From a virus (Duplodnaviria; Heunggongvirae; Uroviricota; Caudoviricetes), in IMG/VR virus record IMGVR_UViG_2690316345_000016: a stretch of 8,088 nt of DNA; one strand, 5' to 3'. The notes beneath the pieces were generated by a model, which worked only from the letters and a program-made list of their open reading frames with translations, ran no database searches and was not told the origin of the DNA. Shown piece after piece: positions 148 through 8,088 of the stretch. Numbering within the stretch: position 1 is the first letter of the stretch; each line of letters opens with the position of its first letter. Both the position numbers and the translations under genes were made by a program.

Positions 148-150
148 GCT

Positions 151-180
151 TTGAACTGGTTAACATAGTGGGATTATAAG
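151..180 (+). promoter_or_regulatory. Candidate sigma70 promoter for the HNH operon, directly abutting the IS2 terminus
   Basis: TTGAAC at 151-156 (5/6 to TTGACA), 18-bp spacer, TATAAG at 175-180 (5/6 to TATAAT); followed by SD AGGAGG at 201-206 and ATG at 211. Confidence 0.3.
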
Positions 181-210
181 CACCGAAGTAGTACTTCAGC
201 AGGAGGCGAT

Positions 211-939
211 ATGAACAGAAAGCAATTCATCCAGTCACACGGAGCTACTTGCAGTAACTGGACGTGGAGTTGGTCATTTGTTAACCATGAAAAGAAGATG
301 GTCATCTTTGGGTCATGGGATGTTGAGAGTGAGCATGAGCGATCTGTAATACTCCGTGAGAAATGGGAATACAACTCAAACAACAAAAAACAACCGGGAT
401 ACACCCAGGCTCTGGAACACATCAGGTTAGTCCATGAAGGCTACGAACTTTACACCTTCAATATGGTTTTCGCAGAACATCCGGATAATCCCGAAATTGC
501 AGTAATCAAAGATTTTGAGCGTAAATTAAACAAGCGATATCTTCGTAAAGAAGGCGTTGTTTGGTATGCAGACTTCTTACCTAATCCATTCCCCGATGAA
601 ATTCCTTCAGGAGAGAGTTTTGTTGAAGGTGCAAAGACTCAAGTAACAGTGAACTACTACGAACGCGATCCAAAGGCCAGACAAGCCTGCATCCAGCATC
701 ACGGTACTACCTGTAAATGCTGTGGCTTCGATTTTGAGAAGGTCTATGGTACACATGGCCGTGGGTTCATTCATGTACATCACATCAAGCCGCTTCATAC
801 GATTGGGGAAAACTATGTAGTAAACCCCGTAACAGATATGATCCCATTATGTCCAAACTGCCATGCAATGGTACATCGTGGAAGCGGTGTACTTCCAATT
901 GCAGACTTGAAAAAGAAAATGACATTATGGAGCGAGTAA
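211..939 (+). CDS. McrA-like HNH endonuclease with a distinct Trp-rich N-terminal domain (candidate type IV / modification-dependent restriction nuclease)
   Basis: 242-aa ORF with strong SD (AGGAGG) before the ATG. The C-terminus CKCCGF...GFIHVHHIKPL...ENYVVNPVTDMIPLCPNCHAMVH is a classic zinc-finger HNH motif (CxxC...HH.xP...N...LCPNCH..H), very close in pattern to E. coli McrA (recalled). The N-terminal ~160 aa (GATCSNWTWSWSFVNHEKKMVIFGSWD...) is aromatic-rich and unassigned. Confidence 0.8.
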   Translation: MNRKQFIQSHGATCSNWTWSWSFVNHEKKMVIFGSWDVESEHERSVILREKWEYNSNNKKQPGYTQALEHIRLVHEGYELYTFNMVFAEHPDNPEIAVIKDFERKLNKRYLRKEGVVWYADFLPNPFPDEIPSGESFVEGAKTQVTVNYYERDPKARQACIQHHGTTCKCCGFDFEKVYGTHGRGFIHVHHIKPLHTIGENYVVNPVTDMIPLCPNCHAMVHRGSGVLPIADLKKKMTLWSE

Positions 940-1731
940 ATGGATTTATCACAATTGAGTAACGTCGAATTGATGCAACTGAATCAGTTGACGCTTGATG
1001 AGTTAGAACGACGAGAGGTTATCAGAACCAGAAACAATCCTATCAGTGAGTACACTGAATGGCTGATTGCGGAAAAGATGCAAATGGTACTGGCTGCACC
1101 TAGTACTAAAGGGTATGACGCTACAACGATTGATGATCGAAAAATTCAGATTAAGTCTCGTAAGAATAATTTAAAAAACCGAACGTTAATTCTTGGAATT
1201 ATCAGAAATTATGATCTGAACCAATTCGATGAACTCATTGCCGTAATATATAACCATGATTTCTCAATTCGTTATGCTATATCCATACCACATGGATTAG
1301 TGAAGGAATATGGTTTTTATAATGAGCACCAGAATGGTTACACTCTAAGAATCAGCAATTTATTACTTAATGATCCACGTGTAACAGATATCATTGAATT
1401 CATTGATCCAGACACTGAACGTTCAAAGGAAGAGATCACGGTGAAGCCAGATTCAAACACTATTCGGGATGTACAGACAATAGGAATGCAGACATTTGTT
1501 GAGTACTATCAATATGTTGAAGGTGGAATGGACACAACTGATCTTGTTGAAAAGATGATAACTGACCATCCAGAGTGGAAGGAAAGTACTGCAAGAACAA
1601 AGGCATCTTCAATGCGAAGAGTATTCAAGAATGGCGACAACATTGAGGTACTAAAAATCATCTATAAGTCGAATCACCCAGCAATAACGCATGAGATTAA
1701 GAGTAAACTGATGACGCTTTGGGATAAATGA
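940..1731 (+). CDS. Hypothetical protein translationally coupled to the HNH gene; N-terminal PD-(D/E)xK / Mrr-like nuclease motif suspected
   Basis: 263-aa ORF; its ATG at 940 immediately follows the HNH stop TAA at 937-939. Residues ~57-72 TKGYDATTIDDRKIQIKSR (nt ~1108-1165) fit a D-x9-QxK arrangement after a Glu-containing helix (EYTEWLIAEKM), resembling PD-(D/E)xK cores. AT-rich codon usage, distinct from the HNH gene. Confidence 0.65.
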   Translation: MDLSQLSNVELMQLNQLTLDELERREVIRTRNNPISEYTEWLIAEKMQMVLAAPSTKGYDATTIDDRKIQIKSRKNNLKNRTLILGIIRNYDLNQFDELIAVIYNHDFSIRYAISIPHGLVKEYGFYNEHQNGYTLRISNLLLNDPRVTDIIEFIDPDTERSKEEITVKPDSNTIRDVQTIGMQTFVEYYQYVEGGMDTTDLVEKMITDHPEWKESTARTKASSMRRVFKNGDNIEVLKIIYKSNHPAITHEIKSKLMTLWDK

Positions 1732-1775
1732 ACAAAGTTTGGGTTATATTTTTGACACAAAAAGATATAATTGTA

Positions 1776-1830
1776 GTACTTCCACCATTCGCATTTGGGT
1801 AGGTTTGTTTGGGCGATTGGTGGAAGTGTA
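1776..1830. repeat. Imperfect inverted repeat (14-bp arms, ~20-nt spacer) between convergent genes
   Basis: Left arm cttccaccattcgc (1779-1792) and right arm gcgattggtggaag (1813-1826) are reverse complements with one central mismatch; extendable by wobble pairs to ~1776/1830. It sits at the switch from AT-rich to ~balanced GC DNA. Confidence 0.5.
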
Positions 1831-2142
1831 TCAAAACGGTAATTCTCCCTGCTCACAAAACCATCCATCTTTATCATGCTGCTTATAGACTGCATTCTCA
1901 CTACTCAGATATTGCAAACCTTCCAGTACTGAACATAGCTGCGTTTCCAGTATGAACACGAAGCAAACACGCTCAATCGTGCCTAACCAGTAAGTACCTT
2001 GCTGGTGCTGGAAGAATACGCGATCCCCATATACAAACTTATCAAGGCTGTATCCCCAATAGCAGACAGTAGCCCACTTGCCTAAATGTTCAAACTGCTG
2101 TGTACCGCTTTTGATTGCCGGATCAAAACCATTCTTGCCCAT
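1831..2142 (-). CDS. Hypothetical aromatic-rich 103-aa protein
   Basis: Minus-strand ORF (MGKNGFDPAIKSGTQQFEHLGKWATVCYWGYSLDKFVYGDRVFFQHQQGTYWLG...). Upstream on the minus strand is GAGGGTG, 7 nt before the ATG. No recognisable family motif; composition differs from its neighbours. Confidence 0.5.
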   Translation of the reverse strand: MGKNGFDPAIKSGTQQFEHLGKWATVCYWGYSLDKFVYGDRVFFQHQQGTYWLGTIERVCFVFILETQLCSVLEGLQYLSSENAVYKQHDKDGWFCEQGELPF

Positions 2143-2322
2143 GTTACACCCTCGCTACCGATACTGTTTATCCATACAGTTTGTCACCACATTTCGCACA
2201 GATCCAGCCATCAAGAGCACTTACCACTAAAAATGGTAGAAATTAAAATATCGATCATTTTAATTTGATCATAAGTTAAAAGTGATTAATTATCAATCAG
2301 TTATGGAAACTGAGAGAGCAAC

Positions 2323-2832
2323 ATGAAACTCGAACATTTGGCAATTCCGATCACTTCATTGAATGGAAAATTACTCGGCGTTGAGCTGGAAACACGTGTA
2401 CTTATAGATGGTTGCCGGGTGTTGGTTGGTATAGGTAAGGAAAGTGAATACATACGTCACGTGGTCTATCAGAACCAGCTAAGAATGATTCAGGGCAAAG
2501 CCGCATGGTTTAAAGAAAAGGGGCTGTTGTGCGTGCTCAGTACTGGCAGGGGTACACGGTATGACGATCTACCATTCATACGGTACATGGCTGCTGAACC
2601 ACTGCTAACCGACGGTTACGACGTAATACGACTAAATAGACGGTTCACTGAAGAACACATCGAAAGGCTGATTTTCCCGGTACTCATCAAGAACATCATG
2701 CAGTACTGCGACAAGGTGATCGTACAAGTCACTGGCAATAACAATCACAGGATTCTACGAGAGTCGGGGATATGGGCAGTACAGGGAGAGTACAGGCCAA
2801 TCCGCTTTGAACAATGCGAACAACTTCTATAG
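2323..2832 (+). CDS. Hypothetical 169-aa protein; tentatively a degenerate, shortened EAL-like (YdiV-like) domain
   Basis: The N-terminus LAIPITSLNGKLLGVELETRV resembles the start of EAL domains (QPIvdL.tG.lvGvEaL.R; compare recalled YdiV FLPIRDNQQVLVGVELITHF). The C-terminus KVIVQVTGNNNHRILRESGIWAVQGEYRPI resembles the EAL tail (vvAEGVEt..q...l...G.d..QGy...P), but the catalytic acidic residues are replaced and the protein is ~70 aa shorter than a full EAL domain. Confidence 0.55.
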   Translation: MKLEHLAIPITSLNGKLLGVELETRVLIDGCRVLVGIGKESEYIRHVVYQNQLRMIQGKAAWFKEKGLLCVLSTGRGTRYDDLPFIRYMAAEPLLTDGYDVIRLNRRFTEEHIERLIFPVLIKNIMQYCDKVIVQVTGNNNHRILRESGIWAVQGEYRPIRFEQCEQLL

Positions 2833-2842
2833 GGAAATAACA

Positions 2843-3166
2843 ATGAAAATACTAATCGTCATGTTGGTAGTACTGCTCACATGCTGCGGCAGCGTACATC
2901 ACTCATTCATGGATAAAGCCTTTGTAGGCACCGTAGATAACAAAGCTACAATAGTACTGTTCGACGCTGGCACACGAAACGGGGTGAAGTACTACCGGCC
3001 TCAGTTTCATAGTGATTGTGGCCGCACCTACAATCCGATTTACCAGGTGGACAATGGCAGTACTATGTGCTTAATACGAGATACACGTATTACTCATTTA
3101 AAATTATACAATATGTATATGGTTAAAGTTATTCCCAATGCAAACGACAGTATCTATGAGAGGTAA
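2843..3166 (+). CDS. Small exported protein or lipoprotein (107 aa)
   Basis: Begins MKILIVMLVVLLTCCGS, a signal peptide with Cys residues after the hydrophobic core (non-canonical lipobox). GGGA lies 9 nt upstream of the ATG at 2843. The ORF track's upstream start at 2807 would overlap the previous gene and place the signal peptide internally, so 2843 is preferred. It starts 10 nt after the stop of the 169-aa gene. Confidence 0.55.
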   Translation: MKILIVMLVVLLTCCGSVHHSFMDKAFVGTVDNKATIVLFDAGTRNGVKYYRPQFHSDCGRTYNPIYQVDNGSTMCLIRDTRITHLKLYNMYMVKVIPNANDSIYER

Positions 3167-3343
3167 GGGGATAAAGACTGTGGTTGTATGTAATTAACAA
3201 TCAATAAAAGAATACACTTAATCCTTCTAATATGGCTCTGACACCTGATGTAACTTTTTAGTTGCAAAGTAAAATTTATGGTCCATAATCGATTTATATT
3301 GCTGGTTGGAGCAGGTTTAAACTAAGATAATTAATGGTGCGAA

Positions 3344-3805
3344 ATGAAAATTACAGAAGAGTTAATTTATAAAACATTCAGTAATACCTTTGAAGGAACA
3401 ATGATATTATTAAAGATTTCAATTCTTAGTACACTAATAACTTTATTCATTCTTATTAATGGTGCAGATCCTGGGGCGATAGAATCCATAAAGGTGGTCT
3501 TTGCTACACTTGCATTGTATGCGATGTCTGTAGGGATTGGCTTAGGTGCAATGTTGCTTTCACCAATTACCTATAAAGTGGCTGATTGTTTCGAACTTAA
3601 AGCAAATAGCCCCTTATGCAAAGTGATTAGTATCGTATATGGGATGGTGTATTTTGCTACAACATATGTAATAGCTACTTATTTGACTTATCTGATTACT
3701 GATAGTTATAGGACAGGAAAAGAATTAGTAGCTGTTTACGTAATTAGTACTGTGACAATATCTTTTATCCAAGCACGTCGTCTCTATAAACTCATTGGTC
3801 AATAA
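3344..3805 (+). CDS. Integral membrane protein, ~4 predicted TM helices (153 aa)
   Basis: Four hydrophobic stretches (approx. residues 20-40, 50-76, 95-118, 127-142) in MKITEELIYK...MILLKISILSTLITLFILING...IKVVFATLALYAMSVGIGLGAMLL... Very AT-rich. Only a weak SD (GGTG). Confidence 0.55.
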   Translation: MKITEELIYKTFSNTFEGTMILLKISILSTLITLFILINGADPGAIESIKVVFATLALYAMSVGIGLGAMLLSPITYKVADCFELKANSPLCKVISIVYGMVYFATTYVIATYLTYLITDSYRTGKELVAVYVISTVTISFIQARRLYKLIGQ

Positions 3806-3834
3806 ACTGGCCGTGGTTATTGATGATTTAGTAA

Positions 3835-3854
3835 AGGCCCACAGAAGCGGGCCT
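3835..3854. terminator. Hairpin between convergent genes (probable bidirectional intrinsic terminator)
   Basis: aggccc (3835-3840), 8-nt loop acagaagc, gggcct (3849-3854); flanked by A/T-rich sequence on both sides, with TTTAC immediately following the stem on the minus-strand transcript. Confidence 0.45.
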
Positions 3855-3871
3855 GTTAATAATATATCAAA

Positions 3872-4231
3872 TTAAAATTCATCTAAAGTACTTCTTTTCT
3901 CGTCTATTACATTAAACTCTAAAAGTCCATCATTAACCTCAAAAGTAACGGTGGTTGAATATGAATCATCAATATCCATATCCTTACACATGTTATAAAT
4001 GAAGTAGCTAATGCTATAATGCAAAACGTAGATATTTTCGTCTAAGTATTCAATATCATCTATAATGAAATAGTCAGTAGATTGTGCTCTTGAATCAATG
4101 AAATCTAAATCAATATCCAAAATCTTTTTTAAAGTTATGTCACTATGATTTTTATCTAAGTAGTCATAGAGAATTTTTTCAGCTTCTTTCCCGTGGGTTG
4201 GAAGTGTTAAATTGAATGGATAGGTAGTCAT
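3872..4231 (-). CDS. Strongly acidic small protein (119 aa), function unknown; candidate DNA-mimic or immunity-type protein
   Basis: Minus-strand ORF MTTYPFNLTLPTHGKEAEK...; by my count 18 Asp + 8 Glu versus 7 Lys + 2 Arg. SD-like AAAGG ~10 nt upstream of the ATG on the minus strand. Extremely AT-rich. Confidence 0.55.
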   Translation of the reverse strand: MTTYPFNLTLPTHGKEAEKILYDYLDKNHSDITLKKILDIDLDFIDSRAQSTDYFIIDDIEYLDENIYVLHYSISYFIYNMCKDMDIDDSYSTTVTFEVNDGLLEFNVIDEKRSTLDEF

Positions 4232-4405
4232 TACATAAACCTTTAGTCAAATAATTAATGGTTAACTTTATAAGTACTAAAATAGCATGATGAATTAAAA
4301 TATTCAATGAAAAGAGAAGGTACTCCCAACACAACTACCAATACGCGAGTTTTCGGCACCGAATGCTTTCATTCGTATGTGACATTTTAGATGTACACAA
4401 AACAT

Positions 4406-6845
<2,440 letters not shown>

Positions 6846-6857
6846 TAAGGATATTAA

Positions 6858-8088
<1,231 letters not shown>

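Follow-up and report, generated by a model that had tools for sequence, protein, structure and literature searches.

The DNA analysed here, which we call the window, is the whole 8,088-nucleotide stretch of the Caudoviricetes record IMGVR_UViG_2690316345_000016 and belongs to an E. coli prophage. Just upstream of the packaging genes it holds an islet rich in adenine and thymine (AT-rich) with two convergent genes, one for a small polytopic membrane protein (TM153) and one for a small, strongly acidic protein (acid119). An original prediction, made from the letters of the sequence, had singled out this islet. Both genes are real, they are independent cassettes, and acid119 belongs to a family that is associated with defence operons; we hold these descriptive points with high confidence. 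The islet contains the following features.

3167-4440, no strand: AT-rich islet, 32% guanine plus cytosine (GC), between the lipoprotein-like gene and the small terminase subunit gene terS
3262-3289, plus strand: weak promoter-like site of TM153, TTGCAA-16-CATAAT, 9/12 in the consensus scan
3344-3805, plus strand: TM153, 153 aa, pI 8.8 (basic), four helices predicted from hydropathy and AlphaFold2 (AF2)
3835-3854, no strand: GC-rich hairpin GGCCCAC-AGAA-GCGGGCC between the convergent stop codons
3872-4231, minus strand: acid119, 119 aa, a solitary family member, matching phrog_13663 (unknown function) at E 1e-5
4279-4307, minus strand: weak promoter-like site of acid119, TTGAAT-17-TATTTT with an upstream TG, 8/12 in the scan

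As predicted, the islet is the most AT-rich part of the window. Its GC content ranges from 28 to 34% compared with 39% for the whole window (0.331 for the TM153 gene and 0.289 for the acid119 gene against 0.391), and the lowest-GC 300-nt stretches of the whole window fall there, at 3151-3450 (0.283), 4051-4350 (0.290) and 3901-4200 (0.293). The two convergent open reading frames (ORFs) were recovered at exactly the coordinates first proposed, 3344-3805 (plus) and 3872-4231 (minus). The islet is a portion of a variable slot that runs from the phage HNH gene to terS. An HNH homolog also borders the slot in a related prophage of Pseudocitrobacter (L016), where the content differs and consists of the HNH gene, a 139-aa gene, an acid119 homolog, a Nuc/NucT-like phospholipase D-type (Nuc-PLD) endonuclease gene and terS. 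With packaging genes following directly and a slot of variable content, the idea of a moron-type site beside the terminase holds up.

The two genes had also been thought to share a terminator hairpin, and here the answer depends on the strand. On the minus strand RNA folding gives the hairpin -18.8 kcal/mol and z -3.4, with UUUAC next to it, whereas on the plus strand it is weak (z -1.4) and a U-run is absent. A consensus terminator scan did not call it. Because folding is strand-dependent and the consensus scan is silent, the hairpin is a likely terminator for acid119 and a weak candidate for TM153. Each gene has a promoter-like site of its own, 55 nt 5' of the ATG in the case of TM153 and about 48 nt 5' of the ATG at 4231 in the case of acid119.

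The exact TM153 and acid119 proteins are found on 128 and 134 E. coli contigs, respectively; these contigs (more than 120 for each protein) are draft assemblies, and every annotation reads 'hypothetical protein'. An open frame of at least 119 codons is estimated to arise by chance at 32% GC with a frequency of about 1e-4 per start. The ratio of nonsynonymous to synonymous substitution rates (dN/dS) is 0.16 for TM153, measured against a 73%-identical homolog, and 0.18-0.30 for the acidic family. Homologs of both genes occur in other genera. TM153 and acid119 are real genes, and both are under purifying selection. The protein clusters of the two genes also include many E. coli assemblies with partial or truncated versions (45-133 aa), several of them at contig ends, which suggests frequent disruption of the region or breaks associated with insertion sequences (IS).

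The convergent arrangement could be read as implying that the two genes belong together, for instance as a toxin in the membrane and an acidic protein that acts as its antitoxin or confers immunity. Their adjacency, their similar AT-rich composition and the common hairpin would fit a pair of this kind. However, among 43 fetched loci the homologs never co-occur outside copies of this prophage: the loci with a TM153 homolog (L006-8 and L026) lack an acid119 homolog, and about 30 loci with an acid119 homolog lack a TM153 homolog. Moreover, the DNA homology between the window and L006-8 is confined to 3328-3809, that is, to the TM153 gene with its ribosome-binding site, and ends 4 nt past the stop codon. 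These limits mark TM153 as a single-gene mobile cassette. We therefore reject a functional pair, given that co-occurrence is confined to copies of this prophage, and regard a toxin-antidote module as extremely improbable.

The acidic protein has 26 aspartate and glutamate against 9 lysine and arginine residues, close to the threefold excess first noted, with a net charge of -17 and a pI of 4.1. A word-indexed search with acid119 returned near-identical E. coli proteins only. When 1.84 billion representatives were scanned exhaustively with HMMER, 22 relatives emerged at E <= 1e-3, all between 82 and 142 aa and none fused to another domain; the typical length in the family is about 115-124 aa. 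Acidity is kept throughout (median net charge -16 and median pI 4.2 in 42 members). Two elements are conserved in the family alignments (A1 and A3): the motif Y-x-I-Y-N-G-C-x-D-M-D-x-D-D, with its NGCxDMDxDD loop, and the extreme C-terminus R-x-T-x-[DE]-E-[FLI]. With 25 sequences as input, AF2 produced a model of reasonable confidence, with a predicted local distance difference test (pLDDT) of 81.8 and a predicted template modelling score (pTM) of 0.72. In this model a short strand and two helices are followed by a curved four-stranded antiparallel sheet, and the final eight residues are disordered. The predicted fold may be described as an alpha+beta cone, loosely NTF2- or cystatin-like, with the helices packed on the sheet.

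Foldseek searches of the model against the PDB and BFVD gave generic matches and none at E < 0.001. No sequence match was found in Pfam or the PDB, with the family profile included. PADLOC gave no credible match for 25 members; its REase_II model appeared in 2/25 with a best E of 0.0045, which we take as noise. A tblastn search against 50,697 phage and 72,556 plasmid records found no match to acid119. The family is thus structurally unassigned and previously unannotated, being absent from Pfam, NCBIfam, PADLOC and the PDB, and for the same reason it is invisible to current defence-finder pipelines.

The gene neighbourhoods of the relatives are more telling. The beta-proteobacterial relatives are always a small ORF within a defence operon, often in DUF1156-DUF499 islands of the Hma type, which are related to bacteriophage exclusion (BREX) systems. 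The following arrangements, in which acid stands for the acid119 homolog, were found.

L011, L013-15, L022-24, L036-39: GajA-GajB-acid, GajB stop and acid start sharing 4 nt
L018, L019, L025: DUF1156 methylase-DUF499 ATPase-acid-Mrr_cat, with stop/start overlap
L035: a bare acid-Mrr_cat pair
L011, L040-42 and Acidovorax plasmids (L043): acid, then an OLD-like ABC ATPase
L012, L021, L040: a 523-535-aa protein without annotation, then acid
L016/L034, Pseudocitrobacter prophage: a 312-aa Nuc/NucT-like PLD endonuclease, then acid, in the HNH-to-terS slot

In the GajA-GajB-acid loci a DUF499 ATPase gene lies upstream in some cases and is absent in others; GajA and GajB of L013 were confirmed by PADLOC at E 1e-230 and 1e-246. 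The 523-535-aa gene (L012 4397-6004, L021 3433-5004, L040 3397-5001) is translationally coupled 5' of the acid gene and encodes a component of defence islands; two of its copies share 93% identity. For this protein and for a 287-aa neighbour of acid homologs we found no Pfam or PDB match. The clades of the small protein track the partner: a 118-aa clade accompanies GajAB or the 534-aa protein, and a 115-aa clade accompanies Mrr or OLD. The closest relative of the window protein, at 53% identity, is that of the Pseudocitrobacter prophage (L016/L034), which is distantly related to ours; its protein cluster is annotated in Citrobacter. Relatives with 42-44% identity are solitary chromosomal genes whose cluster is annotated in Kluyvera, Phytobacter and Citrobacter, their context being taken from metagenome loci, where one lies, for example, between the genes for a glutathione S-transferase and a RimO-like protein. 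In the window, too, the gene stands alone, with a 209-bp gap to terS and no trace of a PLD gene.

These contexts fit with published work on the islands themselves. According to a recent survey (PMC12839542), DUF499-centred BREX-related (Hma) systems recruit PD-(D/E)XK, OLD/TOPRIM and HKD nucleases as auxiliary effectors; its effector passages mention no such small accessory protein, and the term 'acidic' does not occur in the survey. Searching the literature for a third, acidic gene of Gabija brought up nothing relevant. Canonical Gabija is a two-gene system of GajA, an OLD-type ATPase/TOPRIM nuclease, and GajB, a UvrD-like helicase, whereas the 118-aa clade forms a third gene of GajA-GajB operons. 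Neither GajA nor GajB was found among six window proteins scanned with PADLOC. We also considered whether the family is the published GajC and rejected this, since the protein of that name, which belongs to type II Gabija, is a MazF-like effector (PMC13069673).

The conserved acidity, the small size without fusions, the tight coupling to a helicase and to DNases from three unrelated superfamilies, and the existence of orphan copies together suggest that proteins of the acid119 family bind DNA-processing defence enzymes and restrain or regulate them. The likely means would be the acidic surface and the acidic tail that ends in an aromatic or aliphatic residue, acting in the manner of an immunity protein, an antitoxin or a DNA mimic. 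The window copy might then be an orphan that neutralises a cognate nuclease supplied in trans by the host or a competing element; alternatively, it may be what was left after loss of the nuclease gene.

There are clear parallels to nuclease inhibitors and immunity proteins. Barstar with barnase, the colicin DNase immunity proteins and NuiA with NucA provide examples of inhibitors that are likewise small, strongly acidic and stand-alone. As in those systems, relatives of acid119, though not the solitary window gene, adjoin a DNase gene (Mrr_cat, OLD-like or Nuc-PLD) and are co-transcribed with it, often with overlapping stop and start codons, and the family likewise has orphan copies without a nuclease. 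In contrast to barstar, colicin immunity proteins and NuiA, with which there is no sequence or fold homology, the partners span several unrelated nuclease superfamilies, and inhibition is what we infer for them. A further difference is that many acid loci have a UvrD-type helicase (GajB) as the upstream partner. The original prediction had offered two functions for the acidic protein, and the nuclease operons lend support to the immunity protein, while the DNA mimic finds no homology to Ocr or ArdA.

A classical phage anti-restriction DNA mimic of the Ocr, ArdA or Arn kind, which would block type I or type IV restriction or BREX, nevertheless deserves consideration. Like T7 Ocr, ArdA and T4 Arn, acid119 is dense in aspartate and glutamate (net -17 in 119 aa), this charge is conserved family-wide, the gene is borne by a mobile element, here a prophage, and relatives sit in islands rich in restriction-modification (R-M) and BREX-related genes. 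Known mimics are structurally diverse, so that the missing fold match is not decisive. On the other hand, neither Pfam (Ocr and ArdA families) nor the PDB sequences gave a match, the structural libraries (PDB and the viral BFVD) did not either, and the phage and plasmid records searched by tblastn were equally silent. The comparison with known DNA mimics that had been suggested as a check came out negative, as the predicted alpha+beta cone does not resemble Ocr or ArdA. In addition, most relatives are co-transcribed with defence genes of the host, of integrative and conjugative elements or of plasmids, and lie inside defence operons rather than in phage early or plasmid leading regions, and acid119 itself is antisense to the late operon and not within an early operon. 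We consider a classical mimic decidedly unlikely.

The same operons can be read in the opposite sense, with the acidic protein contributing positively to nuclease defence as a sensor, adaptor, activator or assembly factor; in that case the solitary prophage copy would either cooperate with the HNH and mREase_II-like genes of its own prophage or be an inert remnant. The translational coupling to the 3' end of GajB or of the 523-535-aa gene, with nothing following in several loci, is consistent with such a role, as is the use of different partners by one clade. The HNH and mREase_II-like (PDLC03212) genes of the window lie 2-3 kb away. However, canonical Gabija works with GajA and GajB alone (mechanism summarised in PMC13069673), and where acid precedes Mrr, with the stop and start codons overlapping, the gene order is reminiscent of an antitoxin-toxin arrangement. 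Moreover, purifying selection maintains solitary copies in the chromosomes of Kluyvera, Phytobacter and Citrobacter, where no defence genes adjoin them. A positive component thus appears rather unlikely to us.

The conserved C-terminus recalls another group of proteins. The tail of E. coli single-stranded DNA-binding protein (SSB, ...DDDIPF) and the C-terminal phenylalanine of T7 gp2.5 are acidic tips that dock into pockets of DNA-enzyme partners. The acid119 family has a similarly conserved, disordered acidic C-terminus, [DE]-E-[FLI]-COOH. The comparison serves as no more than a lead; the likeness covers a tail of 3-5 residues, and unlike SSB and gp2.5 the family has no OB fold. A bolder version of the restraining role would build on it: the family might be a safety catch or decoy that docks on Gabija, Mrr-type, OLD-type and Nuc-PLD enzymes through the acidic surface and the [DE]E[FLI] tip, and temperate phages may have captured orphans such as acid119 as broad-spectrum anti-defence genes that turn these nucleases off in trans. 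We rate this version as unlikely, too.

Turning to the membrane protein, the hydropathy profile of TM153 has strong segments at about residues 20-40, 48-76 and 92-112 and a weaker fourth at about 128-146, and AF2 places helices at 5-40, 43-82, 89-119 and 122-152. Although the confidence of this model is low (pLDDT 51) and it is too poor for a fold search, three strong segments and one weaker segment together with four modelled helices agree with the four transmembrane (TM) helices anticipated for this protein. Because the C-terminus (RRLYK) and the loop 74-93 are basic, the positive-inside rule predicts a likely N-in/C-in topology. TM153 has no family match in Pfam, PHROGs, PADLOC, NCBIfam or the PDB sequences, and neither it nor its Cronobacter homolog had a tblastn match in phages.

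Relatives of TM153 form three clusters only among 5.8 billion proteins. The 73%-identical homolog (L006-8) lies between a serine recombinase (integrase) gene and cI/cro genes of a different integrative element, which is inserted beside a radical-SAM/TRAM gene. This element also bears SLATT_5, 8xMP, DUF3800 and small resolvase genes and has the appearance of a defence-rich island. A 29%-identical full-length homolog (L026) is found on Cronobacter sakazakii plasmids, amid small hypothetical genes by phoH. In both settings a small signal-peptide protein of phrog_33226 is encoded within two genes of the homolog (L006 5307-5606 and L026 3766-4050); the two proteins share 34% identity (E 5e-19) in otherwise unrelated elements. 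The lipoprotein gene upstream of TM153 in the window is unrelated to them. L006-8 carry a 169-aa gene upstream of their TM153 homolog as well, but it is unrelated to the 169-aa gene of the window and homologous to a 174-aa gene of L001; we therefore rejected a connection between TM153 and the 169-aa gene.

Given its place before the packaging genes, TM153 could be a holin or lysis-timing protein in lambdoid style. In lambdoid phages the lysis genes are located just before terS, and TM153 is small and polytopic with a short basic C-terminus. Its charged end (...QARRLYKLIGQ) and its three to four hydrophobic helices are compatible with a holin, yet generic and not discriminating, and four helices in 153 aa are unlike class I-III holins. 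No endolysin, spanin or holin family match was seen among the scanned ORFs of the window. The homologs, between integrase and cI in L006-8 and beside phoH on the plasmid in L026, are never in a lysis cassette, and neither they nor TM153 adjoin an endolysin or spanin gene; the DNA homology across these three contexts is limited to the TM gene, or the similarity is at the protein level only. A canonical holin with an endolysin, named at the outset as a case that would refute the original prediction, was accordingly not found. The promoter-like site and the AT-rich moron composition also speak against a lysis gene, which we consider very improbable.

The features of TM153 are instead those of a moron: AT-rich sequence, a single-gene cassette, a promoter-like site and presence in three different temperate or plasmid elements. 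TM153 would be a four-helix inner-membrane protein restricted to enterobacterial temperate elements and probably expressed in the lysogen from its own promoter. It probably acts at the envelope, in superinfection exclusion or abortive infection and possibly with small exported proteins. Our best guess, which goes by position and the kind of protein, is an envelope protein made in the lysogen for exclusion or abortive infection. P22 SieA, lambda RexB and SieB and T4 Imm are comparable as small polytopic inner-membrane proteins, and like these morons TM153 has a promoter-like site, in its case a predicted one. RexB has four TM helices in 144 aa and is thus similar in size. In contrast to this resemblance in type, TM153 shows no sequence similarity to SieA, SieB, RexB or Imm in searches of Pfam, PHROGs, PADLOC and NCBIfam, and it has no RexA-like partner. 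TM153 is an ordinary unannotated moron.

Taken together, we favour an explanation in which the islet comprises two independent single-gene accessory cassettes (morons) in the HNH-terS slot of a defective E. coli prophage, acid119 being a partner or inhibitor of nucleases and TM153 an envelope protein. We advance it tentatively, at somewhat less than even confidence, since it includes nuclease binding or inhibition, a functional orphan and exclusion as conjectural elements. Several observations weigh against it. The acid119 of the window is only 22-35% identical to the operon-embedded clades, so that its function may have diverged from theirs. Partners differ even inside the 118-aa clade, whose members are 74-84% identical, which disfavours a strictly one-to-one inhibitor. 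Some GajAB-acid operons end at the acid gene, and a sensor or adaptor role fits these equally well. The enterobacterial chromosomal copies are solitary, so that the protein may have a function of its own that has nothing to do with nucleases. Fold searches with the acid119 model returned generic matches alone, and the link to nucleases itself is drawn from gene context. For TM153 the case for exclusion or abortive infection is purely positional, and truncated variants are common in E. coli assemblies. Finally, the prophage is decaying, with IS1 and IS2 insertions and a split large terminase subunit gene (terL).

Should the acidic family indeed regulate or inhibit these nucleases, it would be a missing third component for a subset of Gabija and BREX-related (Hma) operons and would help to explain the silence of self-toxic nucleases beside an adenine methyltransferase. 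It would also represent a compact, transferable inhibitor, and the orphan copies in prophages would be candidate anti-defence genes. If the safety-catch version were true, acid119 would be an anti-defence protein that originated in defence and belongs to a new fold family. Gabija, Mrr, OLD and BREX-related operons repeatedly carry a member of the acidic family as an additional gene, and its kind, a small acidic nuclease partner, is already known. TM153 is of lesser weight, being one further envelope moron, rare and unannotated, among the candidate exclusion factors.

The remaining features of the window place the islet in its prophage.

211-939, plus strand: HNH enzyme, Pfam HNH at E 2.4e-6, with weak matches to type IV restriction endonuclease (REase)-like PADLOC models
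940-1731, plus strand: mREase_II-like gene, PADLOC PDLC03212 at E 3e-61, phrog_24787
1831-2142, minus strand: 103-aa ORF, a gene call also made in L001 and L002
2323-2832, plus strand: 169-aa STM1697-like degenerate EAL protein, PDB 5hxg at E 3e-17
2843-3166, plus strand: lipoprotein-like gene, 107 aa, with the lipoprotein-type signal MKILIVMLVVLLTCCGS, directly 5' of TM153
4441-5022, plus strand: terS, phrog_57 at E 3e-19
4937-5461 and 5430-6845, plus strand: gpA-type terL, split into two overlapping ORFs in different frames

The window is bounded by fragments of IS2 (1-148) and IS1 (7970-8088). Between them, 148-7976 is 99.97% identical to an E. coli prophage that is uninterrupted in L001 (GCA_023542835.1), L002 and other assemblies. 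The prophage combines a terminase of the gpA type with a serine recombinase; in L001 the gene for a large serine recombinase is found at the left extreme, and the genes for capsid and tail extend rightward. Downstream of terL in the window follow a head-tail joining gene and a lambda-type portal gene (7373-7978), the latter cut by IS1. The gene calls of L002 contain the identical split in terL and no terL is called across the region in L001, while the related prophage L016 has an unbroken terL of 642 aa. The split terL is either a pseudogene or a frameshift, and the prophage is therefore probably defective.

At the left side of the slot, the HNH and mREase_II-like genes (211-1731, the stop abutting the start) form a probable two-gene restriction-like module. 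The 103-aa ORF (1831-2142) is located in a stretch of reversed GC skew between the mREase_II-like and EAL-like genes, and family searches with it were without match. The 169-aa EAL-like protein (2323-2832) is about 60 residues shorter in its middle part than Salmonella STM1697 and is possibly a prophage-borne regulator of the EAL-like type. The 107-aa lipoprotein-like protein (2843-3166) had no match in family searches; its predicted signal makes it a further putative envelope-directed moron.

Scans of viral contigs recovered only the same prophage or, with query P0005, the L016-type prophage; query P0007 gave a 30-residue partial match alone (L020), and P0008 and P0010 gave none. Scanning the window for Rfam families and tRNAs yielded nothing of relevance. 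When the islet was compared by megablast with 5,426 complete E. coli genomes, the terS end alone matched. At this end a promoter-like site (4379-4408) lies before terS, followed on the plus strand at 4406-4435 by a perfect 12-bp hairpin and then U6 (z -6.6), which ends 5 nt before the terS ATG and contains the AGGAGG of terS. This hairpin may be a terminator or a translational control point for the late operon. The surrounding segment 4343-4500 is 97.5% identical to a prophage of E. coli G3/10.

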